Positions 9,644 through 35,123 of a DNA stretch of 64,000 nt are shown in pieces (within the stretch, counting starts at the first letter, position 1; each line of letters opens with the position of its first letter). Under the pieces are notes generated by a model. The model did not search any database and was not told where the DNA came from. It saw nothing but the letters and a program-made list of their open reading frames with translations. The stretch covers positions 608,001 through 672,000 of the forward strand of contig CAVPLT010000007.1 in assembly GCA_963706325.1 (NCBI GenBank). The letters are read 5' to 3'. The stretch is from an uncultured Nitrospiraceae bacterium. Lineage in GTDB: Bacteria; Nitrospirota; Nitrospiria; Nitrospirales; Nitrospiraceae. The position numbers were made by a program, and so were the translations under genes.

Positions 9644-9672
9644 TTGACAGAGAGGAGAGACTGCAGTAATGT
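9644..9672 (+). promoter_or_regulatory. sigma70-type promoter for the multicopper oxidase
   Basis: TTGACA-17bp-TAATGT; a leader hairpin follows at ~9705-9731. Confidence 0.65.
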
Positions 9673-9833
9673 TCAGCCCCTGTTTTCATACGGGTGCTCT
9701 GCGTCCGTCAACGACGCAGCTGTCGTGACGGAACAACTCAACTAGATGCCGAGGTAGTCTTATGGTTTTCTCCTAAACCGCTCATAACGCTTTCATCAAA
9801 ACCTTTCTCAACTCTATCCAAGGAGGCCGGTCC

Positions 9834-12800
9834 ATGGATTCTCATTGGTTCACCCGTGTTACAACACGCGCCCTCAGCGTCATCGCTGGCGGCGCCCTCG
9901 TGTGTCTGCCGCTGGCCGCATCGGCTGAGGATCAGCCGCATGCAAACCATGCGGCGCCGCAACAGACGGCGATGTCACATCAATTGCCGTCGTGGGCGGA
10001 GCAGCTCAAGGGACAGACGATCGTCGAGGACGCCATGGTTGGAAAGCCAGAGCGTTCTGCCATGGTTGAACAGCAACATCAGCGCATCATGGATCATTTG
10101 ACCCAGGATCCGCAGGTGCAGCAGGTGAATACGGGTATGTTCAATACCCAAACCATGATGCATCAGTACGGCGCGGGTGGTCAGGACCTTCTCTTGATGT
10201 CCGACCCCCGGGTGGAGCCGGTGGCATTGACAAGTGGCGGTAAGTGTCCGGCCACCGCTCCTGTGAGGCAGTACAATGTGTCCGCGATCAACGTCGAGAT
10301 CACGCTCAATCAGTGGCTCGATTTCTATCCTGGCTACATGTATACGCTGGATGAGAATCTCGACAAGGTGCGAGCGGAAGAAACGACAAATCGCGAAGCG
10401 CGTGAAAAAGAAGGATTCGATCCAGGTGCGGTGATTCCGGGTGTGCAGGCGCAGTGGATTCAGCCCCTGGCCATTCGCGGTAATCAGGGCGATTGCGTCA
10501 AGATCAAGCTGAGCAATAAGTTAGAAGGCGGGGAGGACGTGAGCCTGCATATCCACGGCTCCAGCATGGTTGTCAGCGCTACCGGTGCATCGGCCGCGAC
10601 GACCAATTCGGATTCGATTGTTGCAAAAGAGAAGAGTGGCGAGTTCGAGTGGTACATCCATCCCAGCACGCAGGAGGGGGTGCGGCAGTTCCACACCTTC
10701 GCCAACGATCGTGAATTGACGGTGATGGGACTCTTCGGTTCCTTCATTGTTGAACCCCGCGGATCTGAATATCTCGAACCATTAGGCACCGGTGATCCTA
10801 CACCAGCGACCAGTGGCTGGCAGGTCATTATCAAGAATGGAACCGGCCCAGATTTTCGGGAATTCGTTCTGATGTATCACGAAGTCGGCGACGAAGCCTT
10901 CCGCCCCGTCAATAAGAAGGGCGACTTTTTGCCACAGCGAGATCCGCTGACAGATGCCTATCGTCCGGGTGGCCGCGCGATCAACTATCGCAGCGAGCCC
11001 TTCGGGATCAATAACATGCATGTGCAACACGAATATTTCGGCTTCGAGGATGAGTCGATGGGGTACAGCTCCTATACCTTCGGCGACGCCTCTCCGACAA
11101 TCCCCCGTTCCTACATGGGGGATCCGGCCAAGTTTAGGCTGGTTCATGGCGGATCGGAAGTATTCCACAGCCACCATCCCCATGGTGGAACTATCCGGTG
11201 GCCGCGGAGTCCTCGGGCCATCGATGACATGAATCTCTGGTCTACCGCTCAGAACGGGCCGGTCAAGTATCCCGTCATCCGTGCCAAGACGGACCGTGTC
11301 GATGTGGAAGTGATTGGGCCGTCAGAAGCCTTGGACCTGGAAACGGAGTGCGGATCGGGCCTCTGCCAGCAATTGGCCGGCGACTTCCTCTTCCACTGTC
11401 ACGTGGCGCACCACTATGTGGCTGGTATGTGGGGCTACTGGCGCGTCTATAATACGATTCAGCAGGGCGACATGCGTAACGACGTCATGCCGGACATGCG
11501 CGAATTGCCGGATCGGAAGGGGCGTATCAGGGCTCCCATCACTTCAGATAAATTAGTCGGTCAGACAGTCGATTGGTTCGGCAAAGCCTTCAAGATCGTG
11601 GAAAAGGGCAAGAGTGATTGGAAGTCCAATCCGGCTACGATCACGATCAAGGACTGGGTTGAAATGCAGCTCCCGACCATGGGCAAGCCAGGGCACAAGA
11701 ATGATGAAAAGGGTCAGATTGTGTCCTATGACGCCACGGTGTTGGACTGGGCTTGGGAAGGCACGCGTGCCTTGAGCGAGACGGAAAGCACTATCGACAA
11801 TCCTAAGTACAAGTCGACCCATCCAGGCAAACGGCATCCGATCACGTTCGAGCCCTTGACCGGCAAAGTTGCCTGGCCCCATCTCACCCCGCACTTCGGT
11901 AAGCGCGTCATGTTCTCTCCGAATCATAGCGGGGCACCTTGGCTAGAAATGATCCGCCGGGAAGCGAATGGCGAGGAGAGCGTCGATCAGGCGTTACCGG
12001 GTGAGAATGGCAATTGGAGCCTCTGCCCTGAGAACGCTGGTCGGAAAAGCTTTAACGTTCACTTCATCAAGCTGCCGATTACTATAGCGAAAAAAACTGG
12101 CAAAGAACCGTCAGTCGTCGACCCGAATGGTTTGATTTATGTGTTACATGAAGAGGAAGCCGACATTCGGAAGAATGACGATCTGAAATATCCGTTGGTT
12201 GTTCGTGGCAACATCTATGATTGTGTAGACTGGACTTTGACCAGTGAATGGGACGACGACGACTATACCAATTTCCAATCGTCGAAGATCAACACCCACT
12301 GGCATTTCCTCCAGTTCGACAACCAGGCATCTGACGGTGTGATCACCGGCTTCTCGTATGAACAGTCTGTGCGTCCGTTCACGATGCTCGAAAAGAAGAA
12401 TCCGAAGGGACTGCCTGTCCCGATGAACACCGTGTTTACCGCGCCGGCCAAGAAGGGCGCAACCACCATCACGGTGAAGAACGCCAAGCAGTACCATGTT
12501 GGCACGTTGATCCTCGTTGGTGCCGACAATGTGAAGGGTAACGAAATTTCCCGCATCAAGGCCATCAACGGTAACACGATCACGCTGGCCAAAGGGCTGA
12601 AGCATGATCACCCTGCCAATGACATCGTGACGGTGGAATTCGTTCGGCAACGATTCTGGGTTGATGCGGATGTGGGGACGGTCTTTTGGCACGACCACGC
12701 ATTCGGAGCGACCACTTGGCCACACGGTGGTTTCGGGACCTTTATCGCGGAGCCGGTTGGATCGACCTATCATGATCCGAAAAGTGGAAAGGCGATTCGC

Positions 12801-14699
12801 AGCGGCCCCATCGCAGACATTCACACCAACGAGCCGGTCGGCCATGGAGTGAACAACAGCTTCCGTGAGTTGATGGTGCAAGTGCACGATACCGTGCCGC
12901 ATACCGTCAACGTTGTGACGGCCGGTAATCCTCCCGGGCAGCCGATCGAAGTGGCGCTGGAAGCAGGCAAGACCGTATCGTTTATGATGCCTGAGAAAAT
13001 CTACATGACACCGATGCCGTTCCTGAACGGTGGCACACACACCACCGGCAGCGGCTTGAATTTCAGGGCGGCACCGATCGCGCAGCGGTTGGCGACGAAC
13101 CCCGATGTGTCGCAGGCCTTCAGCAGTCTCGTGCATGGTGATCCCTACACGCCGACCTTGCGGGCCTATGTCGGAGATACGATGGTGTTCCGTCTATTGC
13201 ACACCCTCATGAACGAGACTATGACCTGGACGCTGTCCGGTCACACGTTCTGGAGTGAGCGGTATGCCTCGGATGCCAATCGAAAGAATTCCATCCATAT
13301 CGGTATCGCGGAGCGGTACGATTTGGTCGTTCCCGAAGCGGGTGGTTCGCGGCATCAAGCCGGCGACTACATTCACTTCAATGGCCGGTCTTCGAAATTC
13401 TCCGAGGGCGGGTGGGGAATCATTCGAGTGCTGGATAAGGAGCAAGCGGACCTGAAGAAGCTGCCAGCGGGCTTCTCGATCAAGGGCGACATCCCAAAGA
13501 CTCTGCCGGTGTGTCCTGCAGGGGCTCCGGTCAAGAGTTTCAATGTCGTCGCGATGGATTTCGCCGGAATGAAGTTCAACGCGAAGGCGCCGGACGAAAT
13601 TGAAGTGGACTTCGAGCGCAAGATCCTTCTCAGCAACTCGGAAGCCAAGATCTATGCGTTGGAAGAGGACACGGCGAAAGTTGCGGCCGGCACGCATCCG
13701 ATGCCGCTGACGCTTCGCGTCAATTCCGGTGACTGTGTGAAGGTCCATTTGAAGAATAAGATGAAAGACAGCAGAGCCTCCTTCTCTGCGATCGGCCTGG
13801 CCTTCGATCCGAAGGATTCCATGGGCGCGAATGTGGGGAACAACCCGGGTGACCAGACGATTGCCCCGGGAGGCGAGCGTGAATATACATATTACGCGGA
13901 TCCGTTCAACGGTGAGACGACGTCGCTGGTGTGGGATTGGGGCAATGTGATGACCAATCCACGGAACGGGCTGTTCGGCGCCGTGGTAGTTGGTCCAAAG
14001 GGATCGAAGTATCGTGACCCGAAGACCGGGGCGGATCTGACCAACAAGAACGCCTGGATGGCCGACGTCATCATCGACCGTTCGGTGCCGGGGAATGAAA
14101 TGCGCCCGAATTACCGGGACGTGGCGTTGTTCTTCCAAGACGAAGACAACATCATCGGCACGAGCTTTATGCCGTACGTTCAGAATGTGGCGGGTTTGAC
14201 CGGCGTGAACTATCGGTCAGAACCGTACAAGTTCCGCGAAGAACAGGGCTGCTCGTTAGGCAAGGTCTTCCAGCCTTGCAAAGCGGACAAGCCGGAGGAT
14301 CCTACGACTCCGATCGTGGAGGCGCATGCGGGTGATCCTGTCCGTATCCACGTATTGGGTGTCAGCAACGAACAGAATGGCATGTTCAGTGTCGAGAAGC
14401 ACGAATGGCCGATCGAGCCGTTTATGCGCGGAGCCGACCACATTAGCGTGGTTGAATTCTCCGGCTCCGAAGTGCTCGATGCCTTCCTCCCTTCGGCTGG
14501 CGGTCCGTATCGTCTGCCGGGCGACTATGTCTACAGCAATCAGCGATTGCCTTACTCGCAGTCTGGTCAGTGGGGGTATGTGCGGGTATTGCCATCGGGT
14601 GATACGCGACTGCTGCCATTGGCTGGGGCAAGCGCCGGCGCGAAGAGTGCCGCGGTTGAGCAACCGGCTGCGCACGCGATACCTGTCGCGGCAAAATAG
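9834..14699 (+). CDS. Large periplasmic multicopper oxidase, MnxG-type motif order
   Basis: Signal peptide; HSHHPH, HCHVAHHYVAGM, THWH, WHDH; three repeats starting CPxxA...xNV. Confidence 0.85.
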   Translation: MDSHWFTRVTTRALSVIAGGALVCLPLAASAEDQPHANHAAPQQTAMSHQLPSWAEQLKGQTIVEDAMVGKPERSAMVEQQHQRIMDHLTQDPQVQQVNTGMFNTQTMMHQYGAGGQDLLLMSDPRVEPVALTSGGKCPATAPVRQYNVSAINVEITLNQWLDFYPGYMYTLDENLDKVRAEETTNREAREKEGFDPGAVIPGVQAQWIQPLAIRGNQGDCVKIKLSNKLEGGEDVSLHIHGSSMVVSATGASAATTNSDSIVAKEKSGEFEWYIHPSTQEGVRQFHTFANDRELTVMGLFGSFIVEPRGSEYLEPLGTGDPTPATSGWQVIIKNGTGPDFREFVLMYHEVGDEAFRPVNKKGDFLPQRDPLTDAYRPGGRAINYRSEPFGINNMHVQHEYFGFEDESMGYSSYTFGDASPTIPRSYMGDPAKFRLVHGGSEVFHSHHPHGGTIRWPRSPRAIDDMNLWSTAQNGPVKYPVIRAKTDRVDVEVIGPSEALDLETECGSGLCQQLAGDFLFHCHVAHHYVAGMWGYWRVYNTIQQGDMRNDVMPDMRELPDRKGRIRAPITSDKLVGQTVDWFGKAFKIVEKGKSDWKSNPATITIKDWVEMQLPTMGKPGHKNDEKGQIVSYDATVLDWAWEGTRALSETESTIDNPKYKSTHPGKRHPITFEPLTGKVAWPHLTPHFGKRVMFSPNHSGAPWLEMIRREANGEESVDQALPGENGNWSLCPENAGRKSFNVHFIKLPITIAKKTGKEPSVVDPNGLIYVLHEEEADIRKNDDLKYPLVVRGNIYDCVDWTLTSEWDDDDYTNFQSSKINTHWHFLQFDNQASDGVITGFSYEQSVRPFTMLEKKNPKGLPVPMNTVFTAPAKKGATTITVKNAKQYHVGTLILVGADNVKGNEISRIKAINGNTITLAKGLKHDHPANDIVTVEFVRQRFWVDADVGTVFWHDHAFGATTWPHGGFGTFIAEPVGSTYHDPKSGKAIRSGPIADIHTNEPVGHGVNNSFRELMVQVHDTVPHTVNVVTAGNPPGQPIEVALEAGKTVSFMMPEKIYMTPMPFLNGGTHTTGSGLNFRAAPIAQRLATNPDVSQAFSSLVHGDPYTPTLRAYVGDTMVFRLLHTLMNETMTWTLSGHTFWSERYASDANRKNSIHIGIAERYDLVVPEAGGSRHQAGDYIHFNGRSSKFSEGGWGIIRVLDKEQADLKKLPAGFSIKGDIPKTLPVCPAGAPVKSFNVVAMDFAGMKFNAKAPDEIEVDFERKILLSNSEAKIYALEEDTAKVAAGTHPMPLTLRVNSGDCVKVHLKNKMKDSRASFSAIGLAFDPKDSMGANVGNNPGDQTIAPGGEREYTYYADPFNGETTSLVWDWGNVMTNPRNGLFGAVVVGPKGSKYRDPKTGADLTNKNAWMADVIIDRSVPGNEMRPNYRDVALFFQDEDNIIGTSFMPYVQNVAGLTGVNYRSEPYKFREEQGCSLGKVFQPCKADKPEDPTTPIVEAHAGDPVRIHVLGVSNEQNGMFSVEKHEWPIEPFMRGADHISVVEFSGSEVLDAFLPSAGGPYRLPGDYVYSNQRLPYSQSGQWGYVRVLPSGDTRLLPLAGASAGAKSAAVEQPAAHAIPVAAK

Positions 14700-14729: not shown

Positions 14730-14764
14730 AAGGGGGGAGCCTGCAAAGGCTCCCCCCTTTTGTT
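14730..14764 (+). terminator. Rho-independent terminator
   Basis: AAGGGGGGAGCCT-GCAA-AGGCTCCCCCCTT followed by a T-rich tail. Confidence 0.85.
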
Positions 14765-14859
14765 ATGGCGTCTCCATTGTGTATGATGAAAACACGTGTT
14801 CAATGTTTTTGTGGATACTCTACGTAATCGACCACATTTTTATTAGTTGGAGGGATGAC

Positions 14860-15768
14860 ATGCGAATGGTCGGCTTTGCCCTGTTGTGTGCCATCGGTGC
14901 CTGCTGGTCGTCGTCGTGGGCCTATGACGAGATCCCGGTCACGGATGGCGGGAGCATTTCCGGTACAGTGACCATGATCGGGGGAAAACCCACCCCTAAA
15001 GGATATAACCTGATCACATTCCCTGACCCTGTCTATTGCGGCCGGATTTCTACCGGGACCGGATGGCGAATCCTTGACGAATTTGCCATGGGTGCCGGTA
15101 ACGGCCTCAAGGATGTAGTGGTCGTGCTCACCGACGCCACGAAGGGCAAACCGTTCAAGTTCGAACCCTTGACCATTGAAGCGCGCGATTGTCGGTTCCT
15201 TCCCTTTGTGACGGTGGTCAAAGACGGAGCAGATGTCGTCGTCATGAACATGGATCCGGTCATGCACGATATCCAGGCCTATGAAACGTCTCAATTGGGC
15301 CCTCGAGTCTTGTTTAATACGCCGCTGCCGATGAATCCCCATCATAAGCGCGTGGTGACCGCAGAGAGCCATGAACATTTGCCCGGCCAGCCGGTCAAGG
15401 AAGAGATTCATATGACCAAGGGCCGGCGTTTGTTTGTTATGCAATGTGGGTTTCATGCCTACATGGAAAGCTGGGGATTCGCGGTGGACAATCCCTACTA
15501 TTCCTTGACCGGCGACGGTGGGACGTTCACGTTGACGGATGTGCCGCCTGGTGAATACACACTGATGGCATGGCACCCCGGCGTTGGAACGACCTTGCAA
15601 AAGACTGTGACGGTTACGGGGAAAGATGTGACAACGGCCGATTTTTCGTTCGACGCGCCCAAGGGACGGCGAAGTGTCCATGAAATCGAAGAGAATCCAC
15701 ACTATGGGCCGGAGTCTTTAGGGAAAGTGGTCGATATTCGTCCCACCTTGCAGCGTCAAGTTCCGTAA
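14860..15768 (+). CDS. Periplasmic carboxypeptidase-regulatory-like/cupredoxin-like protein
   Basis: Signal peptide; VMHDI...QCGFHAYM; G.F.L.DVPPGEYTLMAWH. Start taken after GGAGGG. Confidence 0.75.
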   Translation: MRMVGFALLCAIGACWSSSWAYDEIPVTDGGSISGTVTMIGGKPTPKGYNLITFPDPVYCGRISTGTGWRILDEFAMGAGNGLKDVVVVLTDATKGKPFKFEPLTIEARDCRFLPFVTVVKDGADVVVMNMDPVMHDIQAYETSQLGPRVLFNTPLPMNPHHKRVVTAESHEHLPGQPVKEEIHMTKGRRLFVMQCGFHAYMESWGFAVDNPYYSLTGDGGTFTLTDVPPGEYTLMAWHPGVGTTLQKTVTVTGKDVTTADFSFDAPKGRRSVHEIEENPHYGPESLGKVVDIRPTLQRQVP

Positions 15769-15794: not shown

Positions 15795-16727
15795 ATGGCG
15801 CTGAGTCTATCCCGTGTGGTTCGCGTTGCTCTGCTTCTCGCTGCCGTCTGGCTCGGTTCTCTCGTTCCGCCAGCCGATTCCTATGACGTCGTAGTCGTTC
15901 AGCATGGGGGTACGGTCGAGGGTCAAGTCACCCTCGTTGGAGCCGTTCCGGAACCCAAGGGATTCAATCTGATTACCTTTCCCGACCCCACCTATTGCGG
16001 CCGGATCTCAAATGGGAAGGGTTGGCGTTTGCTGTACGACTTCACCGTTGCTTCCGACGGAGGGCTGAAAAATGCGATCGTCACGCTGGAAGGTGTCGAG
16101 TCAGGCAAACCGTTCGATCTTTCGGTGCCGTTGATCGAAGCGCGCGATTGTATCTTTCAGCCGTGGGTTACGATTGTACGGAATGGGCATGCGGTAGAGG
16201 TCGTGAACATGGATCCAGTCATGCACGACATTCAAGGTTATGAAACCTCCCTGGAAGCCGGCGCGCGGGTTCTGTTCAATACCCCCCTGATCCTCAATCA
16301 AAACCATCAACGGGGCAACATTCACGCCATTCATAATCATGCGCCGGGCAAGTCTTTGGTTGGCCCGATCTATTTGAACAAGGGACGCCGCACGTTTTAC
16401 ATGCAGTGCGGGTTTCACGCCTATATGGAAAGCTGGGCCATGGCTGTCAACAATCCCTATTATGCCGTGACGGACGACCAGGGCGCGTTCAAGATTGATG
16501 ATGTCCCACCTGGGATCTATCAGATGGTCGTGTGGCATCCGCAGTCTGGCCCGGGGGTGACGCGGACCATCACTGTCGTTCCGAATGGAAAGACAACGGA
16601 ACAGGTCGCCCTCCCGGCCCCGAAGGGGAACCGGACAGCCTATAGAGTCATGGAGAACCCTCGGTTCGGCCTGGAATCTCTTGGGCATCCCGTGGAGATT
16701 CTGCCGCTGGTGGAGCATCAACACTAA
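15795..16727 (+). CDS. Paralog of the 14860 protein (cupredoxin-like)
   Basis: Shares NLITFPDP.YCGRIS, IEARDC, NMDPVMHDIQ and MQCGFHAYMESW. Confidence 0.8.
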   Translation: MALSLSRVVRVALLLAAVWLGSLVPPADSYDVVVVQHGGTVEGQVTLVGAVPEPKGFNLITFPDPTYCGRISNGKGWRLLYDFTVASDGGLKNAIVTLEGVESGKPFDLSVPLIEARDCIFQPWVTIVRNGHAVEVVNMDPVMHDIQGYETSLEAGARVLFNTPLILNQNHQRGNIHAIHNHAPGKSLVGPIYLNKGRRTFYMQCGFHAYMESWAMAVNNPYYAVTDDQGAFKIDDVPPGIYQMVVWHPQSGPGVTRTITVVPNGKTTEQVALPAPKGNRTAYRVMENPRFGLESLGHPVEILPLVEHQH

Positions 16728-17373
16728 TTTAGAACGAAGCGACCTCGCGCTGTGGATATTGGCAAGTTGCTTCTCGCTGAGCCTATGTCTGGCTACCGGT
16801 CTTCGCGCAGCTGATCAACTGGACTCGCCCGAGCCGCCGATTGCTAAGCAGGCAGAGTTTTCAGGGACATTGGTGAAGCGGGTGGAAGGGCGTCGCTTCG
16901 AGGCTCAAGTGTATGCCAAGGGCGACCGACTGCGTCTGGAATATAAGTACGCCCTGAAGACGGACCTGGGATATTCCAGCATCGAAATTATTTGCTTGGA
17001 TAGAGGCGAATCTTGGTTCTTGTTGGCTCAGCGCCGCCAAATACTTCCTGTTCCTATTAAATCCGACGACATCCTGCCGATTCAACCGGGTCTCCCCGGA
17101 GAAGAAAGTAGAGCGCTGGTGGGTGATGCCACGACGATCGGTCGCCCGTCGAAACTCTACGAGGTGCGAGTGGATTATAACGGGCGGAACGAACGATTTT
17201 ATGAATGGGTGGATGTGGAAACAGGGGTTGTATTGAAATTGGTGAGCCAAGATCGAGAGTGGTCCGTAGAGTATCTGCGTATTCGATTCTCCCCCCAGCC
17301 AGCCTACTATTTTGACGAGCCGACGGGGTATAGGCGCTGGGTACCGACATCTACTTCACAAGAACGAGGGTGA
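16585..17373 (+). CDS. Exported beta-rich protein (LolA/RseB/DUF4412-like); true start probably after 16727
   Basis: Signal-like LWILASCFSLSLCLATGLRA; IGRPSKLYEV...YEWVDVETGVVLK...YFDEPTGY resembles LolA-fold proteins. Confidence 0.5.
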   Translation: MERQRNRSPSRPRRGTGQPIESWRTLGSAWNLLGIPWRFCRWWSINTNLERSDLALWILASCFSLSLCLATGLRAADQLDSPEPPIAKQAEFSGTLVKRVEGRRFEAQVYAKGDRLRLEYKYALKTDLGYSSIEIICLDRGESWFLLAQRRQILPVPIKSDDILPIQPGLPGEESRALVGDATTIGRPSKLYEVRVDYNGRNERFYEWVDVETGVVLKLVSQDREWSVEYLRIRFSPQPAYYFDEPTGYRRWVPTSTSQERG

Positions 17374-17406
17374 TGCGCCGGGCCGCGACTCTCATTGAGG
17401 CATGCC

Positions 17407-26040: not shown

Positions 26041-26083
26041 GCACGCGCGTCGTCGTGACGGGTCTAAGGAATCGATCATCACT

Positions 26084-26476
26084 ATGAGCCGACCGTGGAC
26101 CAAGACCTGGCTGGATGTCGTGTTTGGTATGGTGGTTATGGGCACGGTTGGAGCATTGATTGGCACGATCTTGGGTGGCTCCTCAGTTCCCATCACGGCT
26201 GGATTGGGAGTCGTACTCGGCGCCATGGTCGGCTTTCTCGGAGGGCGTCGGTTCCTGTTGAGTATCTTGGTGGGGACGGTCCTGGGCGGCCTGCTGGCGT
26301 GGCTCGTTGCGGAGTTTGACAAGATTTTGTACGGTGCTGGAGCCGGTGCGGCTATGGGTGGATTTTTGGGCGTGCAGATTTCGATGTTACTGGATATGCG
26401 AGCGGCGCGGAGAGCAGCGGCTGTAGATGCGAGCGCTGAAGATCTCCCAGCTCAATCGACGGTCACCAAATCATGA
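26084..26476 (+). CDS. Gly-rich small membrane protein
   Basis: GxxxG-rich TM helices. Confidence 0.7.
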   Translation: MSRPWTKTWLDVVFGMVVMGTVGALIGTILGGSSVPITAGLGVVLGAMVGFLGGRRFLLSILVGTVLGGLLAWLVAEFDKILYGAGAGAAMGGFLGVQISMLLDMRAARRAAAVDASAEDLPAQSTVTKS

Positions 26477-26491
26477 GGTGCGAGTAGTCTA

Positions 26492-27406
26492 ATGGAAAAC
26501 AGGGGCGTGCTTATTGGGTCGATCATTTTTGTGTTCGCATCGTTCATTTTGATGATCGGGGCGCTGGTTTACGAATCGTATAAGGCCAAGCAGATGCGCC
26601 AATTAGCACTATCTATCACGACAGAGACGAAGGCGGTGGAGGTGTCTACCGCTCAGGACTTCTCTATGTATAAGACGCTCATTGGAGACGACGGGCGAGG
26701 GATGGTTCAAATATCCGAGGGCCCGTTCGTGATGGGCAGTCGTGATAATGATAGTGATCCGGACGAAAAGCCGGAGCATCAAGTCTATTTGAAGCCGTAT
26801 TTCTTAGATAAGCATGAAGCGACGCAGGAAGCGTATGCGCGATTTTCGAAGATGACGAAGCGGCAGACGCGAAAGATCGAGGTGTTTGAAGGCGATCCTG
26901 CCAAGTTGCTCAAGCCGGAAAGCCCGATGATCGCCGTGACGTGGGATGACGCGGAGGCCTATTGTAAGTGGGCAGGAAAGCGGTTGCCGACCGAAGCGGA
27001 ATGGGAGAAGGCCGCGCGCGGGGAAGGCAAACGCCGATATCCTTGGGGCGAGGAGTTTGTGGTGGGCTATGCGAACATCGACGGGGATGAGGATGGGTTT
27101 CGATACCTGGCGCCACCTGGGTCGTTCGAGTCTGGCCGCAGCCCTTACGGGATCTACGATATGACGGGGAATGTCGGTGAATGGGTCGCGGACTTTTATG
27201 ATGAGAACGCCTATCGAAAATCGGCATACCGGGATCCGAAGGGACCAGAGCAAGGCGAGCAGCGCGTCATTCGTGGAGGGTCCTGGCGGGAAACCAAGCG
27301 GAACGTGCGCTCCTCCAAACGATTTCAGGCAAAGCCGTGGCGGCACGATATTACGGTCGGGTTCCGTTGCGCCAAAGATATTGAGGCTGATGGGCCGGCC
27401 AAGTAG
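26492..27406 (+). CDS. Membrane-anchored FGE-sulfatase-fold protein
   Basis: RLPTEAEWEKAARG, YDMTGNVGEW, RGGSW, GFRC. Confidence 0.85.
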   Translation: MENRGVLIGSIIFVFASFILMIGALVYESYKAKQMRQLALSITTETKAVEVSTAQDFSMYKTLIGDDGRGMVQISEGPFVMGSRDNDSDPDEKPEHQVYLKPYFLDKHEATQEAYARFSKMTKRQTRKIEVFEGDPAKLLKPESPMIAVTWDDAEAYCKWAGKRLPTEAEWEKAARGEGKRRYPWGEEFVVGYANIDGDEDGFRYLAPPGSFESGRSPYGIYDMTGNVGEWVADFYDENAYRKSAYRDPKGPEQGEQRVIRGGSWRETKRNVRSSKRFQAKPWRHDITVGFRCAKDIEADGPAK

Positions 27407-27417
27407 TCGGTCAGGTC

Positions 27418-28380
27418 ATGCTTGAAACACGATTCAAAATTATCTTCCTCGTCGTCGTGTTGTTTGCCGCAAGCTTGCCCCTCATAGCCATCCTTCGCGG
27501 AACGATTTCCACTCCGTTTGAAGCTGAGCCTCCGCATGGGGAAGAAAATTCTGGGTGGCCTTCCGCTGAGCCGGAAGTCGTGGAAGAGCCTATCGCTGAG
27601 GAGCTTATCCCAATTCCTGCGGGCCCGTTCGTGCGTGGAACGAATGGAGGGGGATTTGATGAGCGTCCTGAACGGACGATTTACCTCGATGGTTTTTTTA
27701 TTGATCGTTACGAAGTGACGAACGCCCAATACGCCGCCTTTGTGAAGGCAACGGGCCATCGAAAATCAGGGCCACCATCACGCTATGCGAAAAATACAGC
27801 CCGTATGCGAGGAGTGAACCAGCCGGTTGTCTATGTATCCTGGGAGGATGCGAAAGCCTACTGTGAGTGGCGTGGTAGACGATTACCTACTGAGGCGGAA
27901 TGGGAAAAGGCCATGCGTGGTACGGATGGCCGTCTCTGGCCATGGGGTAATGTCGAAATCCAGGATGGGGCGAATTGGGCCCGTGTGGATGATGGTTTTG
28001 AAGTTGCCGCACCGGTAGGTCAAGTGCGGAGTGATGTGAGCCCCTATGGAGTCATGGATGGCGCTGGCAATGTCATGGAGTGGGTGGATGATTGGTATCA
28101 GGAAAACGCGTACGCTGGGTCTTTGGAGAGAAATCCGGCAAGTCCAGAGTACGGCACGTACAAGGTGCTGCGCGGAGGGGGGTATACGAGTTCTGGGTCG
28201 GACTTGCGCATTACGACACGCAGCAAGATGATGCTGGATTTTCGAGATGAAACCATCGGGTTTCGCTGTGCGCAATCAGGTGCGGGGAATGGTGGCTCGC
28301 AAGGGGGAAGGGTTTCGGGAAAATCGCAGGAAATCACAGGAAATCAAAGTAGTAGAGGATCAGGAACACGGCCAAAATGA
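27418..28380 (+). CDS. Membrane-anchored FGE-sulfatase-fold protein, paralog 2
   Basis: RLPTEAEWEKAMRG, GNVMEW, RGGGY, GFRC. Confidence 0.85.
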   Translation: MLETRFKIIFLVVVLFAASLPLIAILRGTISTPFEAEPPHGEENSGWPSAEPEVVEEPIAEELIPIPAGPFVRGTNGGGFDERPERTIYLDGFFIDRYEVTNAQYAAFVKATGHRKSGPPSRYAKNTARMRGVNQPVVYVSWEDAKAYCEWRGRRLPTEAEWEKAMRGTDGRLWPWGNVEIQDGANWARVDDGFEVAAPVGQVRSDVSPYGVMDGAGNVMEWVDDWYQENAYAGSLERNPASPEYGTYKVLRGGGYTSSGSDLRITTRSKMMLDFRDETIGFRCAQSGAGNGGSQGGRVSGKSQEITGNQSSRGSGTRPK

Positions 28381-28382
28381 TA

Positions 28383-28411
28383 TTGACAACCATTCCAGCC
28401 AAAACTATAAT
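28383..28411 (+). promoter_or_regulatory. Consensus sigma70 promoter
   Basis: TTGACA-17bp-TATAAT, exact consensus. Confidence 0.85.
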
Positions 28412-28536
28412 GTCGAACACTTTTGAATTTTTAGCCATAAAAATCCCTTTTAAAAACATGCAAATGAGGGATTTTGATTAACACAGCCTAGTTGGTGTGT
28501 CAATTCAAAATACGTACTTAAACCGTTGGGAGAATC

Positions 28537-28656
28537 ATGATGGAAGCTGCTCAGGGGGACGTCTCAATTAAAATCGGCAAAATGATTTTCTATATCACCT
28601 GTGCAATGGGTATTTGGTTTTTCTATTGGATGGCAGGGATTCAATGCCCTTGCTGA
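28537..28656 (+). CDS. 39-aa single-TM peptide ending CPC
   Basis: GGGAGA RBS; MMEAAQGDVSIKIGKMIFYITCAMGIWFFYWMAGIQCPC (my translation; below the ORF-track cutoff). Confidence 0.65.
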   Translation: MMEAAQGDVSIKIGKMIFYITCAMGIWFFYWMAGIQCPC

Positions 28657-28707: not shown

Positions 28708-28830
28708 ATGGGCCAAACAATTGTGTATTTCATCGTATCCGTGTTGATATGCGTCACGTTTTTTACGGCCGTTGATCACTTTTTGATGGATGCGCAAGGA
28801 TTGGATTTTTGGTATCTCTTGCGGAAGTAG
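28708..28830 (+). CDS. 40-aa single-TM peptide
   Basis: GAGGGGG RBS; MGQTIVYFIVSVLICVTFFTAVDHFLMDAQGLDFWYLLRK (my translation). Confidence 0.65.
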   Translation: MGQTIVYFIVSVLICVTFFTAVDHFLMDAQGLDFWYLLRK

Positions 28831-28888
28831 ACATTGAAGTAAGGTTTGAGTTGTTGCTCACGTACGCGATGTATCAAGGAGGTAACCC

Positions 28889-30808
28889 ATGGGCTCTGTA
28901 ACCCGCACGAAGTTGATGTCGGTCATGGCGCTGTGCGCGATGATTGGCCTTCTCCTTCTGCCCGTTCTGGTTGCGATCCCTGCCCTTGCCAGCGACAGCG
29001 GCGCGCCAGCGGCTGGCGTGAAAAAAGAGGGTGGTGATGCAAAAGTTGAGAAGGGCAAGGATGTTTATTATAAGACGGAAGGGATTGTTTCTGGCCCTCC
29101 GGCTCCTAAGACGACCGATAGCGAAAAGGACTATCCTCGTTACAACTTCGAGAGCCGCGTTCTTCTTTGGATTGCCAATCAGCAGCATCTTTACTATGGC
29201 AGCTTCGTGTTGGCCGTCCCCATTTTCTGTATGATCATCGAGTTCATGGGTGTTGTGAGCAAGGATAAAGCGTTAGCCAAGCGATACGACCAGCTGGCCT
29301 ATGATTTTATTAAGATCAGTTTGACGGCGTATTCCTTGACGGCAATTCTGGGCGGAATTCTGATCTTTACCTTTCTGACTCTCTATCCCGCCTTCTTCCA
29401 ATATCTGTCCGGTATCTTTAGGCCGGTCATGCACATCTATGCATTGATGTTCGTGGCAGAGAGCGGAACTCTCTACATTTATTATTATGGTTGGGACAAG
29501 ATGAAGGAGGGATTCCTGAAGTGGATTCACCTCAGCATGTCCGTAGTCCTGAACGTTATCGGAACGGTCTTAATGTTCCTGGCGAACTCGTGGATCGGCT
29601 TCATGATGTCGCCGGCAGGAGTCGATGAGCAGGGACGGTTTCTCGGCAATATCTGGCACGTGATCCATACTGCCCTGTGGAACCCTCTGAACTTGCACCG
29701 TATTCTCGGCAACATGGCGTTTGGTGGTGGCGTCGTCGCGGCTTATTCCGCCTACCGGTTCCTGTCGGCTAAAACCGATGAGGAGCGCGCTCATTATGAC
29801 TGGATGGGCTACATCGCCATGGCCCTCGGGGTGTCGTTCTTGATCCCATTGCCATTCGCTGGCTATTGGTTGATGCGCGAGGTCTACGCCTATCGGCAGC
29901 AGATGGGTATCACCTTGATGGGCGGGTTGCTAGCCTGGTTGTTTATTATTCAGGCAACCATGATCGGCATTCTATTTCTCAGCACCAACTACTATCTTTG
30001 GCAGGCGCTCGGCCGGATGCGCGGTGCGGAAAAGTATCAACGGTACATTAAGTATCTTGTTTTCCTGCAGACTTGCGGTTTCTTAGTCTTTATTACCCCG
30101 CATACGATGGTGATGTCTCCGGCTGAATTGAAGGCCATGGGTGGTCAGCAGCACCCGGTGCTTGGTAACTATGGTGTTATGTCGGCCAAGAACGGCGGCA
30201 TCAACGTGGTAATCACGACAACCATATTGAGCTTCGTGTGGTATATGCGAGGCAATAAGATCTCCACGGTGTCGTGGTCAAAGTTCGGCAATATTTTCAT
30301 GGGCTGCTTTTTCTTCTTTGCCTATCTCAATATTATCTTGCTGGCCATTTACGGGTACTACATTCCTGCCAACGTACGCGTAGGGCTTTCTGTGCCACAG
30401 GTGGCGACCACGTTATCTTGCCTGTTCTTCATGTTTGCGCTCAACAGCGTCATGATGAAGGGTGCGAAGCAAATGGGTCCTATTGAATGGGGTAAAATTT
30501 CCGTTCGATCGCAGTATGCACTCATCATGTTGGCAACAGCCTTTACATGGATGATGGGGCTGATGGGATATATCCGGTCGTCTGTCCGCCTGTTTTGGCA
30601 CGTTAATGAGATTATGCGCGACAACTCTCCGTGGGCTTACACGCACACGGTCGGTTTTGCTGCGAACATGATCTCTTTCAACGTGTTGTTCTTCTGGACC
30701 ACCATCATGTTTGTATTTTGGTTAGGTGCCCTCGCGGCCAAGAAGGCTCCAGTCGAGGCAAAGGCAGCTGTGCCTGGAAGAGCGACCGCCCCTGCGGTCG
30801 GCCACTAG
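28889..30808 (+). CDS. Cytochrome bd-like oxidase subunit I (CydA-like), paralog 2
   Basis: AAGGAGG RBS; QQHLYYGSFVLAVP, FVAESG, WNPLNLHR, MGYIRSSVRLFW. Confidence 0.85.
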   Translation: MGSVTRTKLMSVMALCAMIGLLLLPVLVAIPALASDSGAPAAGVKKEGGDAKVEKGKDVYYKTEGIVSGPPAPKTTDSEKDYPRYNFESRVLLWIANQQHLYYGSFVLAVPIFCMIIEFMGVVSKDKALAKRYDQLAYDFIKISLTAYSLTAILGGILIFTFLTLYPAFFQYLSGIFRPVMHIYALMFVAESGTLYIYYYGWDKMKEGFLKWIHLSMSVVLNVIGTVLMFLANSWIGFMMSPAGVDEQGRFLGNIWHVIHTALWNPLNLHRILGNMAFGGGVVAAYSAYRFLSAKTDEERAHYDWMGYIAMALGVSFLIPLPFAGYWLMREVYAYRQQMGITLMGGLLAWLFIIQATMIGILFLSTNYYLWQALGRMRGAEKYQRYIKYLVFLQTCGFLVFITPHTMVMSPAELKAMGGQQHPVLGNYGVMSAKNGGINVVITTTILSFVWYMRGNKISTVSWSKFGNIFMGCFFFFAYLNIILLAIYGYYIPANVRVGLSVPQVATTLSCLFFMFALNSVMMKGAKQMGPIEWGKISVRSQYALIMLATAFTWMMGLMGYIRSSVRLFWHVNEIMRDNSPWAYTHTVGFAANMISFNVLFFWTTIMFVFWLGALAAKKAPVEAKAAVPGRATAPAVGH

Positions 30809-30896: not shown

Positions 30897-32210
30897 GTGA
30901 TTGAACTCATTAAAGCGGGCATGGCAATGGGATGGCCTGCATTGGGGCTTCTGGTTGCCCTCTTGTTCTATTTTAAATTTTCCATTTCCGATCCTGCTGC
31001 GAACAAACGAGCAGTCTTCAAGACGTTCATCGGGATTTTGGCCACCTTTCTCCTCTTTATGGCGATTGCCAATTACAAGATGAATTTCTTTGAAGAGTCG
31101 CGGCTTTTGCCCGTTTCTCTCGTTTTGATCACTTGTACGGCATTCATGATGGCGCTCTATTTTACGAATCTCAGCTCCTTGCTGAGGATCGGTGGTTTCA
31201 TGTTTTTCATCGGCGCGGCCCTTTCTGGTTATGGCAATTGGCTGCCGCAGGTCGAGGGAGGGTTTCCGCCCGTTGAAGAGAAGAAAGACTTCAGCAACAT
31301 GCCGCAAACTGAGCTTGCTGACGAAGGTGAGAAAATCATTTTCGGCGGAGTTGGACAAAATAAAGTTCAGGGTGCCATTGGTAAGGGGCAGTGTCCTCTG
31401 TGTCATGCCTTCCACAAAGGGATGTTGGGAGAGCGCGCACCAAACCTGGATGGGCTGCCGGAGCGGGCTGGAACCCAAATCGGAGATGCCAGGTACCATA
31501 AAGGTAATCCTGCCGCTCGGGATTCCAACCAAAAGGAAGCGTTTCCTGGTTCCGGCACCGCTGAAAATGCTCAGGAGTACATTGCGGAATCTCATTCATG
31601 CCCAAGCTGCTTCGTTGTTGCAGGATATGGTGTCAAAGGCACAAACGACAAGGAAAGCCCCATGCCGGCGATCCATAAGCCGCCAATTTCATTGTCCCTG
31701 CCAGAGCTGGCTGCCGTCGACACCTGGCTGTATGTGCGTGAAGGGCGTGAGGCTCCAAGTTTCGATGAAATTGTCAAATCGTATGAAAAATTCATCCCTG
31801 AATCGGATCGCCCAAAGCCTCCTACGGAGGGCGATGCAAAGCCTGGAGCCAGTGCTTTGATGGCCGATGGGACGGAGCCAGTTGATCAGATTTTTGCGAA
31901 AGGCCAGTGTGTAGCTTGCCACACCATTCCTGGTATCGCCGGTGCCACAGGGACTATTGGTCCGAAGTTGGTTGAGGGGACTAACGCACCGCTTAGGATT
32001 AAGGACAAGGAATACAAGGGCAAGGCTAAGAGCGTTTCTGACTACATTATGGAATCCATTGTCGAGCCTAGTGCCTACGTCGTGAAGGGTTTTCCTGACA
32101 ACACTATGCCGAAGGTGTTCGGCCAAAAGCTCAGTGCTGGAGCATTGAAGAAAATTGTTGATTACCTTTCGCAGGTCCAGGAAGGGAAAGAGCCACCCAA
32201 GGCCTCTTAG
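30897..32210 (+). CDS. Membrane-bound diheme cytochrome c
   Basis: Four N-terminal TM helices; CPLCH and CVACH. Confidence 0.85.
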   Translation: MIELIKAGMAMGWPALGLLVALLFYFKFSISDPAANKRAVFKTFIGILATFLLFMAIANYKMNFFEESRLLPVSLVLITCTAFMMALYFTNLSSLLRIGGFMFFIGAALSGYGNWLPQVEGGFPPVEEKKDFSNMPQTELADEGEKIIFGGVGQNKVQGAIGKGQCPLCHAFHKGMLGERAPNLDGLPERAGTQIGDARYHKGNPAARDSNQKEAFPGSGTAENAQEYIAESHSCPSCFVVAGYGVKGTNDKESPMPAIHKPPISLSLPELAAVDTWLYVREGREAPSFDEIVKSYEKFIPESDRPKPPTEGDAKPGASALMADGTEPVDQIFAKGQCVACHTIPGIAGATGTIGPKLVEGTNAPLRIKDKEYKGKAKSVSDYIMESIVEPSAYVVKGFPDNTMPKVFGQKLSAGALKKIVDYLSQVQEGKEPPKAS

Positions 32211-32262: not shown

Positions 32263-33300
32263 ATGAAAGCATTAATGTCAGTCGGGGCGTTGATCGGAGT
32301 CGTTGGGTTACTCATGTTGATCGGTATGATCTTCGGAGTCGTTCCCTCGAATACGGTCCGGCTTGTTGAGGGCTACATGCCCATGCAGGTATTGAGTGAG
32401 CTCGCCATTTTCGTGGCAGGTTTTACCGGTCTGAGCTATATGCTCAATGTAATGGGAATTGCCTTCCCTCGTTTCTGGCAGGGCATTTTGTTTTGGGTGT
32501 TTATCATGACTTACCTCAAGTTCCGTATCTACCCACCAATACCTTTCAGTGTTCGGGCGATGTATGGCACGGTGTCGTTTGTCGCGGTGTTTATGTGGGT
32601 ATCGGCGAATGAAGAGGATTGGAAGAAGTTCAAACAGCCTATATTGAATGTGCTCGATGCCCACACGGGATTCCACAAGGCGCTTCGCACAATGTATCTG
32701 ATACTCTTGCCGCTCCTCATCGGTGGCTTCTCGTTTTTGACGATGAAGCCCAGCGTCGATGAGCCGATTGAGCTTCGAACCGTGCATCCAGCACCGCCTG
32801 CCAGCACGAAGGTGCATGGCAAGACCTATACGTTGCAAACATCACAGAATCCCTACCGCGTGAATCCCGAAGGAAAGTATGATCAGGAATATAGCAATAA
32901 AATGATCGTGGAGCAGTCGATGGGACGATTGATGTCCCCCAATGCCAATCCGTGGGACGACAAGGCTGAAGGATATTTGAAATACGTTCGTGAGGGTGGT
33001 GAAATATTTTTCCAGAACTGTCATTTCTGTCATGGCGACAATCTTAACGGACGCGGTCTGCACGCCTTTGCCTTTAATCCCATTCCTGCAAACTTCACCG
33101 ATCCGGGAACGATTGCCCAGCTACAAGAGACATTCATTTTCTGGCGTGTAGCCAAGGGTGGAATCGGTTTGCCGACTGAAGGTTTCCCCTGGGCTTCTGT
33201 CATGCCACCATGGGAACAACATCTGACAACCGATGAAATCTGGAAAGTGATTCTTTTCGAATATTGGCACACGGGATACTATCCTCGGACATGGGATTAA
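32263..33300 (+). CDS. Membrane-bound monoheme cytochrome c
   Basis: About 5 TM helices; CHFCH; distal SVMPPW. Confidence 0.85.
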   Translation: MKALMSVGALIGVVGLLMLIGMIFGVVPSNTVRLVEGYMPMQVLSELAIFVAGFTGLSYMLNVMGIAFPRFWQGILFWVFIMTYLKFRIYPPIPFSVRAMYGTVSFVAVFMWVSANEEDWKKFKQPILNVLDAHTGFHKALRTMYLILLPLLIGGFSFLTMKPSVDEPIELRTVHPAPPASTKVHGKTYTLQTSQNPYRVNPEGKYDQEYSNKMIVEQSMGRLMSPNANPWDDKAEGYLKYVREGGEIFFQNCHFCHGDNLNGRGLHAFAFNPIPANFTDPGTIAQLQETFIFWRVAKGGIGLPTEGFPWASVMPPWEQHLTTDEIWKVILFEYWHTGYYPRTWD

Positions 33301-33344
33301 TCGAATCTTACAAACAACCTGGGAGAACAGGTGTGAGGCTAACA

Positions 33345-35123
33345 ATGAGCAAATTTGGGATGAACGGAAAGCCGACGTTGGTTATCGGTGCGGCATTAGG
33401 CGCCCTTCTCTTCTCCGCGGTCGGTGAGGGGGTCCTTGCGGCAGATCTTCCAGCGGGCTTCAAGGCGGGTGAGCTGTCGCCAGCACCTCCGGCAGACATG
33501 ATCGAAGCCGGGAAACGGGTCTATTTTACTAAATGCGTATGGTGCCATGGCGTCGATGGTGCTGGAGATGGGCCTGGAGCCGACCGCCTGTGGCCGCGTC
33601 CCAGGAACTTCAATCAGGGGACCTTCAAAATTCGTCATACGGCGAGCGGGGAATTGCCTCTGTTTAACTACAATGAACGATCCGCGGATTCTGGAAAGAA
33701 CGACCTTTTTGATACCGTGACACATGGCCTACCTGGTTCTGCAATGCCGCCGTGGGAAGGTATTCTAAGCGAAGAGCAACGTACTCAAGTGTTGTCTTTC
33801 GTGACGACGCAGTTGGTCAAGGACCGGAAGTTTACCGATAAGGAAGAATCACAGACCATTCTTCAATTGGGTACGATCAAGGCGGTTGAGGCGACCGAAG
33901 AGAGTCTGAAGAAGGGCGCAGCGCTAATTGTCGATAAGAAATGCATTGAGTGTCATGGTGTGGAAGGGCGCGGAGACGGGAATGCTTTCAACCTGAAGGA
34001 TGACTGGGGATTTTCCATCCAGCCAGCCAATTGGCACAAGTGCTGGAATTTTCGTGGTAGCCGCCAGGATCCCTATAATGTACGGAACATTTTCCGTACC
34101 TTTTCAACCGGGGTGAACGGTACGCCCATGCCGTCATTTGCGGACAATACGACTGTCGAGGAGCGATGGGACATTGCCAACTTCGTCAACTCGTTATGTG
34201 AGCGCGATGGCGACGGGAAACCGCTCGGTATCGATCCGCAATCAGACAAGCCCAAAATCAATTTCGTCGTTCCCTCTGCTCCGATTGAAGGGGAAATTTC
34301 AGATGACCCCGAGAATGAGATGTGGAAGAAGGCGAGCCGTCGCTACATAGCTATGGGCGGTCAGATCACCCACAAACCACGGAACTTTGTGAATCGTATC
34401 GACGATATTTGGGTGAAGTCACTGTATAACGAAAAGAATGTTGTCTATCTCATCCAGTGGGATGATCGAACGAAGAGCGTCGCGGAGGGGAAACTTCCAT
34501 GGGCGCCGACCCAAGTTAACGTGGAAAATTTCGGTGTGAAGGAACAAGCGCCGAAAACTGGCGAAGAGGGATCCATCGCGTCTGCCCAGAACAATTATGC
34601 GGTCTATAACGATGGGATTGGTTTCCAGTTCCCGATTAAGTGGCAGGAAATTCCCGCTCCTTTCAAGCCCCGGTATTTGTGGGGAGATGCGAAGTTCAAT
34701 GCCGATATTCTCAAGTGGGAATCGGACGGTTCTTTGAGGTCCTTTAAAGGGACTGGGTGGGACCAGGACTTTGAAGAGCGGGATGATTTCGAAGAGAAAG
34801 TTAAGGTGTTGAAGTCCGAGTGGAAGAATGGTCAGTGGACCGTCATGATCTCTCGTCCGCTCAAGGGTGACAAGGACGATTATGACGAGTACACCAGGTT
34901 CGATGTCGGAAAGTATATTCCAATGGTTTTCTTTGCCTGGGATGGGCATAACGGTGATGCGGGACGTAAGATGGCCGTATCGGCTTTCTATTACACGATT
35001 CTCCAGCCGCCGATTCCTCAGGAAGTGTACATTTACCCGGCCGTCATCGCGGTTGGCGTGGTGCTTCTGGAAGGCTGGATGCTGACCCGCCGTGCCAACA
35101 AGAAGAAGGGCAAAGTGCTCTAG
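33345..35123 (+). CDS. Diheme cytochrome c fused to an EbdC/NxrC-like domain, with C-terminal TM anchor
   Basis: CVWCH, CIECH; WDDRT, WKNGQWTVMISRPL, FFAWDG; C-terminal hydrophobic helix. Confidence 0.8.
   Translation: MSKFGMNGKPTLVIGAALGALLFSAVGEGVLAADLPAGFKAGELSPAPPADMIEAGKRVYFTKCVWCHGVDGAGDGPGADRLWPRPRNFNQGTFKIRHTASGELPLFNYNERSADSGKNDLFDTVTHGLPGSAMPPWEGILSEEQRTQVLSFVTTQLVKDRKFTDKEESQTILQLGTIKAVEATEESLKKGAALIVDKKCIECHGVEGRGDGNAFNLKDDWGFSIQPANWHKCWNFRGSRQDPYNVRNIFRTFSTGVNGTPMPSFADNTTVEERWDIANFVNSLCERDGDGKPLGIDPQSDKPKINFVVPSAPIEGEISDDPENEMWKKASRRYIAMGGQITHKPRNFVNRIDDIWVKSLYNEKNVVYLIQWDDRTKSVAEGKLPWAPTQVNVENFGVKEQAPKTGEEGSIASAQNNYAVYNDGIGFQFPIKWQEIPAPFKPRYLWGDAKFNADILKWESDGSLRSFKGTGWDQDFEERDDFEEKVKVLKSEWKNGQWTVMISRPLKGDKDDYDEYTRFDVGKYIPMVFFAWDGHNGDAGRKMAVSAFYYTILQPPIPQEVYIYPAVIAVGVVLLEGWMLTRRANKKKGKVL

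Follow-up and report, generated by a model that had tools for sequence, protein, structure and literature searches.

The gene block analyzed here lies in a 64,000-nucleotide stretch of DNA (the window) from an uncultured Nitrospiraceae bacterium (contig CAVPLT010000007.1, positions 608,001 to 672,000) and combines copper proteins, CydA-like proteins, and membrane cytochromes c around the cytochrome bd-like gene bd-like_3. It is a further copy, from a nitrite-oxidizing Nitrospira, of a known system, which was described from 2010 to 2019 and never purified. Luecker et al. 2013 (PMC3578206) presented a nitrite oxidoreductase (NXR)-associated cluster common to Nitrospina, Nitrospira, and Kuenenia (kustd1709-1713), composed of an alternative NxrC, mono- and diheme cytochromes, two cupredoxin-like proteins, and a bd-like protein lacking the Q-loop; a multicopper oxidase (MCO) belongs to it in Nitrospina and Nitrospira and is absent in Kuenenia. 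In the supplement of that paper, N. defluvii matches are 639 and 1621 aa long, as are the corresponding proteins of the window. An earlier note on this DNA, which had seen in the block the best candidate for an uncharacterized system, was preceded by this description of the whole gene set in 2013. The Kuenenia genes adjoin nxrABC, unlike those of the window, and their likeness is taken from the published description. Mundinger et al. 2019 (PMC6606698) named bd-like_3, alt_NxrC_2 (here altC), and bd-like_4. The OR-N family (Murali, Gennis, Hemp; bioRxiv 10.1101/2021.01.16.426971) shares with the window CydA homologs that retain His19, carry extra helices, and have neither a quinol site nor CydB; in the OR-N literature available to us, no enzyme assay was found reported. 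Cluster TO_1 of "Ca. Manganitrophaceae" (bioRxiv 10.1101/2021.11.15.468770) contains, as in the window, a bd-like protein of clade I along with two cytochromes c and an EbdC-like cytochrome of the periplasm; its donor is Mn(II), whereas the window genome bears NXR and has no ammonia monooxygenase match in a search run without positive control, which leaves a comammox identity unsupported.

Annotation of open reading frames and Pfam domains places 21 genes on the plus strand at 9834-35123, forming a chain of MCO; the cupredoxin genes Cu1 and Cu2 with the genes of an exported and a HEAT protein; Cu3; middle genes and bd-like_4; and small genes followed by the core. The genome (4.2 Mb, 96% complete) holds the block on contig C7 and has three nxrB copies, the nearest ones lying ~38 and ~70 kb from the block. 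The gene set announced by the earlier note is present: a 1621-aa MCO, three cupredoxins, two CydA-like genes, small membrane reading frames, mono- and diheme cytochromes c, and a diheme c/EB_dh fusion. Its co-orientation holds for the 21 plus-strand genes; since the small gene pepC (28334-28438) is on the minus strand, the block is not wholly co-oriented. NITMOv2_3655-3640 of N. moscoviensis are one-to-one orthologs of Cu3 to altC, in the same order, with 54-90% identity and with coordinates matching Table S1 of PMC6606698; NITMOv2_3656-3660 were matched to window genes by order, length, and annotation only. The core gene order is kept in all 21 relatives, and the full 21-gene set in nine of 10 same-genus genomes, so the block is not a chance assembly. 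Gene content, orthology, unit boundaries from sequence signals, folds, residues, and co-occurrence were observed here; RNA levels and inhibitor behavior come from papers. We give an even chance to the reading that the core (pepA, pepB, bd-like_3, diheme c, monoheme c, and altC) encodes a cytochrome c-fed bd-like oxidase, in which electrons would pass from NXR through c-hemes and copper to bd-like_3 and on to O2.

The product of bd-like_3 (28889-30808, plus strand; 90% identity to NITMOv2_3643) is an OR-N-type CydA homolog. Its predicted model (predicted local distance difference test [pLDDT], 91.5) has CydA chains as all of its top ten Foldseek and VIA matches, with Z scores of 31.6-35.5 and root mean square deviation (RMSD) values of 3.1-4.1 over 331-353 aligned residues. 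Thirteen long helices lie in residues 85-616, preceded by an N-terminal hydrophobic segment, and with about 14 helices, His19 kept, and no quinol site, the protein agrees with the OR-N description. When residues are numbered after E. coli CydA by way of the genome's own canonical CydA, H100 (His19), E191 (Glu107), and H270 (His186) are kept in 26/26 sequences; the Q-loop with Lys252 and Glu257 is absent, its place being taken by QQMGITLMGG and helices. The C-terminal half does not align by profile, and M431 in the motif G-V-M-S-A-K is a candidate equivalent of Met393, the heme b558 ligand. Four additional histidines (His214, His405, His422, and His571) are invariant. The canonical cytochrome bd (E. 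coli CydABX) has in common with bd-like_3 the subunit I fold, His19, Glu107, His186, and small single-helix proteins nearby, whereas bd-like_3 differs in having no Q-loop, Glu99, Glu445, or CydB, and in its extra helices and cytochrome c partners. Five PF01654 genes were found in the genome (bd-like_3, bd-like_4, two beside Rieske/cytochrome b genes on contig C1, and one canonical CydA) together with a single CydB, which adjoins its own canonical CydA ~170 kb from the block. Neither bd-like_3 nor bd-like_4 has a CydB of its own, and no unpaired CydB exists in the 96% complete genome, so that the distant pairing by which the earlier note could have been refuted is not available. Extra stand-alone OR-N copies with neither cytochrome neighbors nor the GVMSAK motif were seen in two other genomes (G179:C1:1758968-1760539 and G118:C36:233905-235470).

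The three genes downstream of bd-like_3 encode its predicted cytochrome partners. The membrane-anchored diheme cytochrome c (30897-32210, plus strand) is of the His/Met type, with M256 and M404 invariant. In the proteins P0121 and P0134, single reading frames fuse an OR-N domain to a homolog of this cytochrome (P0121, E value of 6e-16 in pairwise comparison), and because of these natural fusions the diheme cytochrome is likely the second subunit of bd-like_3. The membrane monoheme cytochrome c (32263-33300, plus strand) has its CxxCH motif at 253-257, with M314 and an invariant H175. In altC (33345-35123, plus strand; found in 39/41 genomes), a diheme c domain matching PDB 6h5l_B (E value, 2.9e-39) is followed by an EbdC/NxrC-like EB_dh domain (PF09459, 45.8 bits; cut-off, 33.3) and a C-terminal transmembrane (TM) anchor. 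We take Met108 and Lys201 of EbdC, positions checked on 2ivf_C, to be its heme ligands; altC has Trp and Met in these columns, and heme b in its EbdC-like part is therefore uncertain. The heme c/EbdC fusion of the earlier note thus exists, without the Met/Lys heme b ligand pair of EbdC. In the window's two soluble NxrC genes, these columns still hold Met and Lys, and alt_NxrC_1 of the C1 cluster has His and Lys.

From these parts, we infer the membership of the complex, its heme occupancy, the electron path, and O2 as the acceptor. The core operon would form one membrane complex with its redox face in the periplasm, where nitrite would be oxidized by a soluble NXR. Electrons may enter through altC, through the abundant cupredoxin Cu3, or through both; five His/Met c-hemes would then carry them to a low-spin heme b (His270 and probably Met431) and to a high-spin heme bound by His100, both in bd-like_3. 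In this protein, O2 would be reduced with cytoplasmic protons moving past Glu191, separating charge without quinol; the anchored cytochromes would replace CydB, and the small proteins would be accessory subunits. The periplasm-fed, cytochrome c/Cu-linked membrane complex proposed by the earlier note finds support here, with neither CydB nor a Q-loop and with parts that co-occur, as its suggested synteny and profiling check brought out. [quoted passage not shown] Among the six CydA-type genes of N. moscoviensis (PMC6606698, Table S2), bd-like_3 is the top transcript at 2645 reads per kilobase per million (RPKM), 3.2-fold over bd-like_2 (816), with bd-like_1 at 1167, bd-like_4 at 262, and the remaining candidates at 76 and 1.4 (canonical CydA). 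This rank shifts weight to O2 reduction from the reverse electron transfer discussed below. Together with the retained His19 and Glu107, the inhibitor pattern, and the Nitrospinae without cbb3, the transcript rank makes O2 reduction the reading that we favor, with the chances for and against it about level.

Several observations weigh against O2 reduction. In all 26 bd-like_3 sequences, the Glu99 column is Tyr and the Glu445 column (third-heme ligand) is Ser (a one-residue indel nearby gives Ser or Arg, with Glu in neither case), so a canonical two-heme O2 site is not intact. The same gene order occurs in the nxr cluster of anammox bacteria, which are anaerobes, and expression there falls 2.2- to 7.7-fold when nitric oxide (NO) replaces nitrite (PMC6423088). 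Besides the block, the genome encodes canonical CydAB and contains a cbb3-like locus; furthermore, bd-like_2 has HWH where bd-like_3 mostly has FWH (24/26), and the literature favors bd-like_2 as the oxidase for its extra copper-type histidines. RNA level is not flux, and the values come from another species. Among relatives, those in genomes G169 and G160 have Met for His19 and share an operon with NXR-like subunits; that in G143 sits upstream of a complete CuA/heme-copper oxidase; and others occur in dsrA-bearing genomes with heme-copper oxidases of their own (three of the five tested lie above the dsrA cut-off). As a family, the OR-N proteins appear to serve as a periplasm-to-membrane module that can be reused, with an end reaction that may vary from clade to clade. 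Two OR-N relatives lack His19, contrary to the statement that all paralogs keep it (10.1101/2021.01.16.426971).

Details of these loci were as follows. One operon in G169 (L173:1883-11208) and in G160 (L174) contains the OR-N gene, two cytochromes, TorD, and alpha, beta, and anchored gamma subunits like those of NXR or periplasmic nitrate reductase, and G169 also carries dsrA. In G143 (L172:1083-11415), one run of genes begins with a cupredoxin, OR-N, and three cytochromes and continues with CuA subunit II, subunit I of a heme-copper oxidase, another COX1-like gene, and an SCO-like gene. The cbb3-like locus of the window genome (G000:C4:978356-981005; L076:4321-7177) has its COX1 profile split over two overlapping reading frames, the second with three CxxCH motifs, which may reflect a frameshift or an unusual fusion. 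The cluster on contig C1 of the same genome (L071:4523-14437) runs bd-like_1, Rieske, cytochrome b, bd-like_2, alt_NxrC_1.

The same evidence bears on a second reading, in which the core complex anchors NXR to the membrane and conducts electrons in reverse to the quinone pool, like alternative complex III (ACIII) running backwards (PMC3578206, PMC6606698); the choice between oxidase and reverse transport in the earlier note is the alternative already posed in these two papers. Conservation within, and co-regulation with, the anammox nxr cluster (PMC6423088) fits such a conduit, as do the NxrA/B/C-like and TorD operons in which the OR-N relative, its His19 replaced by Met, is the only polytopic heme b-type protein, the relative upstream of a heme-copper oxidase, and the loss of Glu445 and Glu99. 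The bd-like_3 model matches ActF/ActC of ACIII (Z, 20-23) and PsrC (Z, 15) as well; however, this likeness lacks a canonical CydA model as control and is probably general to the fold. Moreover, no quinone site was identified in bd-like_3, from which the Q-loop is gone, and the window's protein keeps His19 and Glu107. The Rieske/cytochrome b genes that would suit the task cluster with bd-like_1 and bd-like_2 instead, and the relatives in NXR-like operons fall outside the bd-like_3 clade in a quick tree whose deep branches are uncertain. A near full-length NxrB-like match was present in only 5/18 module-bearing genomes outside families f1 and f2; on this count, we rejected the idea that module and NXR are strictly coupled. 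Because of the lost Glu ligands, the anammox co-regulation, and the relatives next to heme-copper oxidases, in NXR-like operons, and in dsrA-bearing genomes, we keep reverse transfer as a possible but rather doubtful explanation.

The remodeled site, with its extra conserved His214, His405, His422, and His571, would also suit a complex that reduces another acceptor such as NO, or one that acts as an electron hub between NXR, cupredoxins, and other oxidases. Neighboring genes vary across Nitrospirota, and the NXR electrons of anammox bacteria are said to feed NO formation (PMC8387239); however, the very high expression in steady aerobic growth better fits a main respiratory role, and we regard this proposal as quite improbable.

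Judged by its sequence signals, the region is a conserved neighborhood of at least five predicted transcription units, not one operon, because conserved terminators follow MCO, Cu3, and altC. Hairpins with U-runs, whose stems differ among relatives, were found after MCO (14730-14765; 16/16 relatives), after Cu3 (19836-19875; 17/17), and after altC, where the terminator at 35152-35183 closes the core operon (20/21), all on the plus strand; the control counts were 0/16 for Cu1, 0/21 for bd-like_4 (two of the 21 rows being bd-like_3), and 0/17 for FGE2. These calls rest on folding and conservation, as a generic terminator scan performed at chance level overall and missed the MCO and Cu3 hairpins. 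At its upstream end, the core operon is bracketed by a 12/12 sigma-70 promoter (28383-28411, plus strand). A promoter-like site before MCO (9644-9672, plus strand) has a perfect -35 box at 9644, a 17-nt spacer, and a weak -10 box, and lies below the promoter-scan threshold; promoter inspection of the block found none for Cu3 or for the methyltransferase unit. The N. moscoviensis RPKM values (PMC6606698) fit this division: 2602-4743 for the core, 4348 for Cu3 (rank 20), 1922 for MCO, and 154-443 for thirteen other genes. Assembled RNA contigs from four studies match Cu3 and parts of the core, one of them covering 28769-29035; strand, start, and level are not given by these contigs.

The 10-fold RNA differences and the terminators within the block bear on a fourth reading, that of the earlier note at its widest, in which the whole 25 kb builds a single supercomplex of copper and heme proteins, where bd-like_3 pairs with bd-like_4 in a CydAA′ heterodimer, the giant MCO is attached, and Mn(II) is possibly the donor. 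Gene order is conserved across three families, MCO and Cu3 are also highly transcribed in N. moscoviensis, and MnxG is the closest solved relative of MCO. However, bd-like_4 (23485-25353, plus strand; NITMOv2_3650), a faster-evolving CydA-like paralog, appears in the quick tree as the sister of bd-like_3 on longer branches, and a 1:1 twin is unlikely because its RNA in N. moscoviensis is ~10-fold lower; it has no adjoining cytochrome c gene, and in the two f4 loci nothing of the block was seen beyond FGE2, the small genes, and the core. Its His19 equivalent is kept in 21/22 sequences (one gap) and that of His186 in 22/22, while the Glu107 equivalent is Thr in 7/22 (this genus and one other locus). 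The unit of bd-like_4 and its neighbors may be a low-level variant or serve assembly. A CydAA′ oxidase proposed for Nitrospirales uses a NIDE0901-like gene (PMC12342949), which we read as the C1 locus and not as this pair. MCO, for its part, is far from the module in 3/14 single-contig genomes, where Cu3 stays ~11 kb upstream, and has three paralogs in the genome; its family was found in 40 of the 151 genomes of the phylum, each of them from family f1, f2, or f5, and not in 16 module-bearing genomes outside these families. MCO also possesses an O2-reducing copper cluster of its own. A single 25-kb supercomplex is thus very unlikely, the twin bd oxidases of the earlier note show no evident 1:1 pairing, and its Mn(II) donor gains nothing beyond the MnxG likeness.

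MCO (9834-14699, plus strand; NITMOv2_3660) is a giant exported MnxG-like multicopper oxidase of 1621 aa. Known MCO motifs assign H445, C522, H527, and M532 to the type-1 site and H448, H450, H521, H523, H822, H824, H953, and H955 to the trinuclear set; the His and Cys ligands are present in 20/20 aligned sequences. MnxG (PDB 9bxa) is the closest solved structure (E value, 1.5e-73), and Bacillus MnxG has the same copper motifs, whereas the window protein is flanked by cupredoxins and scores only 130.3 bits against NCBIfam NF041487 (MnxG), far under the cut-off of 3100. Multicopper oxidases reduce O2 on their own and need no membrane partner; by this established chemistry, MCO can do so unaided, and together with Cu1 and Cu2 it would constitute a separate periplasmic O2-consuming enzyme. 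Two giant paralogs (75% and 66%) lie at G000:C7:373437-378137 and C1:63413-68314, the C1 copy being followed by cupredoxin and FGE-fold genes.

Cu1 (14863-15768; NITMOv2_3659) has a cupredoxin domain inside a carboxypeptidase-regulatory-like sandwich, Cu2 (15795-16727; NITMOv2_3658) is its paralog, and Cu3 (19006-19800; NITMOv2_3655) is modeled (pLDDT, 95.7) as a cupredoxin inserted in a transthyretin-like sandwich, all three on the plus strand. Residues ~76-181 of Cu3 match plastocyanin (Z, 10.8; RMSD, 2.5; 87 aligned residues), with amicyanin as the top Foldseek match. The motif Cys-x2-His-x2-Met occurs in 54/54 Cu3, 15/15 Cu2, and 21/23 Cu1-like proteins (90/92 family members), and the upstream His is invariant (56/56), completing a putative type-1 copper ligand set. 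Cupredoxin genes directly adjoin the module in distant Nitrospirota (G056, G101, G116, G143, and G147). Outside f1 and f2, they co-occur with it in 13/18 module-bearing genomes versus 9/95 others, counts in which kin are not independent and for which the profile included rows from several of the counted genomes.

Absent from the literature that was searched are three conserved membrane proteins of 34-40 aa that track the bd-like_3 clade, and an antisense sigma-70 promoter frozen at synonymous sites. pepA (28537-28656, plus strand; 38-39 aa) is a single-TM protein with the motif W-F-F-Y-W-F and, in families f1-f3, a C-terminal CPC; pepB (28708-28830, plus strand; 40 aa, single-TM) has the motif M-x-x-Q-G-L; and pepC, a nearly invariant 34-aa single-helix membrane protein, overlaps the 3′ end of FGE2. 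Across Nitrospirota, the 600 nt upstream of bd-like_3 contain both pepA and pepB in 78/78 loci with sufficient upstream DNA (two of 80 were dropped). pepB is a single-copy gene in 42/151 genomes; it immediately precedes the gene with the greatest likeness to bd-like_3 in 40 of the 42 and is on separate short contigs in the other two, and none was found where the OR-N of the genome falls outside the bd-like_3 clade. pepC, which gene callers list as hypothetical, is a single-copy gene in 39/151 genomes; it points the same way as pepB in G047 and G051, and in the Nitrospirales loci it is inverted. No Pfam or NCBIfam match below an E value of 0.05, including CydX/CydS-type families, was obtained for any of the three, and atlas and family searches returned no named family for pepC. 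Presumably, they are comparable to the CydX/CydH small subunits. The table of PMC6606698 has no rows for the two small genes between 3643 and 3646 (tags 3644/3645), and neither the minus-strand pepC nor the promoter overlap was found in the text of that paper available to us; a wider search, which did not extend to subscription papers, found nothing relevant in print on the small proteins or the antisense overlap.

The core promoter is nested within pepC and is read from the other strand. In a set of 94 distinct pepC coding sequences from 96 loci (kin not independent; four f4/f5 loci set aside), codons 10, 11, 17, and 18, which correspond to the -10 and -35 boxes, are identical in 94/94, including a codon 11, ATA, that is rare elsewhere (11/319 Ile in eight long window genes). 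All other degenerate codons vary, although codons 12 and 13 do so only slightly (88/94 and 93/94). In the four f4/f5 loci, the peptide is kept and the -10 box lost; because pepC persists there, both functions, peptide and promoter, appear real. A probable pepC promoter faces that of the core (28475-28503, minus strand), with a perfect -35 box, a 17-nt spacer, a TG extension, and a weak -10 box; its -35 box (at 28503) is present in 92/94. A Shine-Dalgarno-like count of 83/94 came from a loose pattern and was not taken as evidence. From this geometry, the core and pepC transcripts, with predicted starts near 28418 (plus strand) and 28468 (minus strand), would overlap by ~50 nt, and pepC transcription would cross the core promoter. 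A broader, joint proposal is that Nitrospira-type nitrite oxidizers use bd-like_3 rather than bd-like_2 as their main terminal oxidase, a quinol-independent enzyme with a rebuilt, Glu-less O2 site, five c-hemes, a blue-copper shuttle, and the three unrecognized 34-40 aa subunits, and that inversion of pepC placed the core promoter in its coding strand facing a second promoter, creating a conserved convergent-promoter switch that sets the core level; we consider it unlikely and advance it tentatively.

The remaining genes of the block, all on the plus strand, are an exported protein with no Pfam family (16747-17373; NITMOv2_3657), an exported TPR/HEAT-repeat protein (17395-18858; NITMOv2_3656), a weakly expressed group of O-methyltransferase, DUF420 membrane protein, PCP_red-domain protein, and Nitrospirota-specific multi-TM protein (20084-23488; NITMOv2_3654-3651), which may have assembly roles, and a DUF3047 protein, a glycine-rich 3-TM protein, and two membrane-anchored FGE-fold proteins (25372-28380; NITMOv2_3649-3646). 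The multi-TM protein has no named family in atlas and family searches, and no Rfam match occurs within 9400-36000. Directly 3′ of the core terminator, mobA (35161-35838) is found in 21/21 relatives and plausibly serves the molybdenum cofactor of NXR. The protein encoded at 4663-6279 (538 aa) carries a motif of the HEXXH type, matches no Pfam family, and has an apparent counterpart, by annotation and position, in NITMOv2_3665. The segment 42896-62564 contains a sensor kinase/regulator, a ferredoxin, a TorD-like chaperone (50684-51679), a radical SAM enzyme, two pentaheme cytochromes, and the soluble NxrC genes (51686-52732 and 58536-59378), and fits the description of the nitrite-oxidizer cluster NITMOv2_3614-3631 in PMC12342949.

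With bd-like_3, the core offers a strong candidate for the so far missing enzyme by which Nitrospira, the most widespread nitrite oxidizer, would pass nitrite-derived electrons on to O2. The present analysis reduces the parts list for a purification from the whole 25 kb to the six-gene core plus Cu3, and includes three small proteins that RNA counting has skipped and that could escape ordinary proteomics. The residue changes of bd-like_3 predict a two-heme or a histidine-rebuilt site, and the overlap of the core promoter with pepC is precise and testable.

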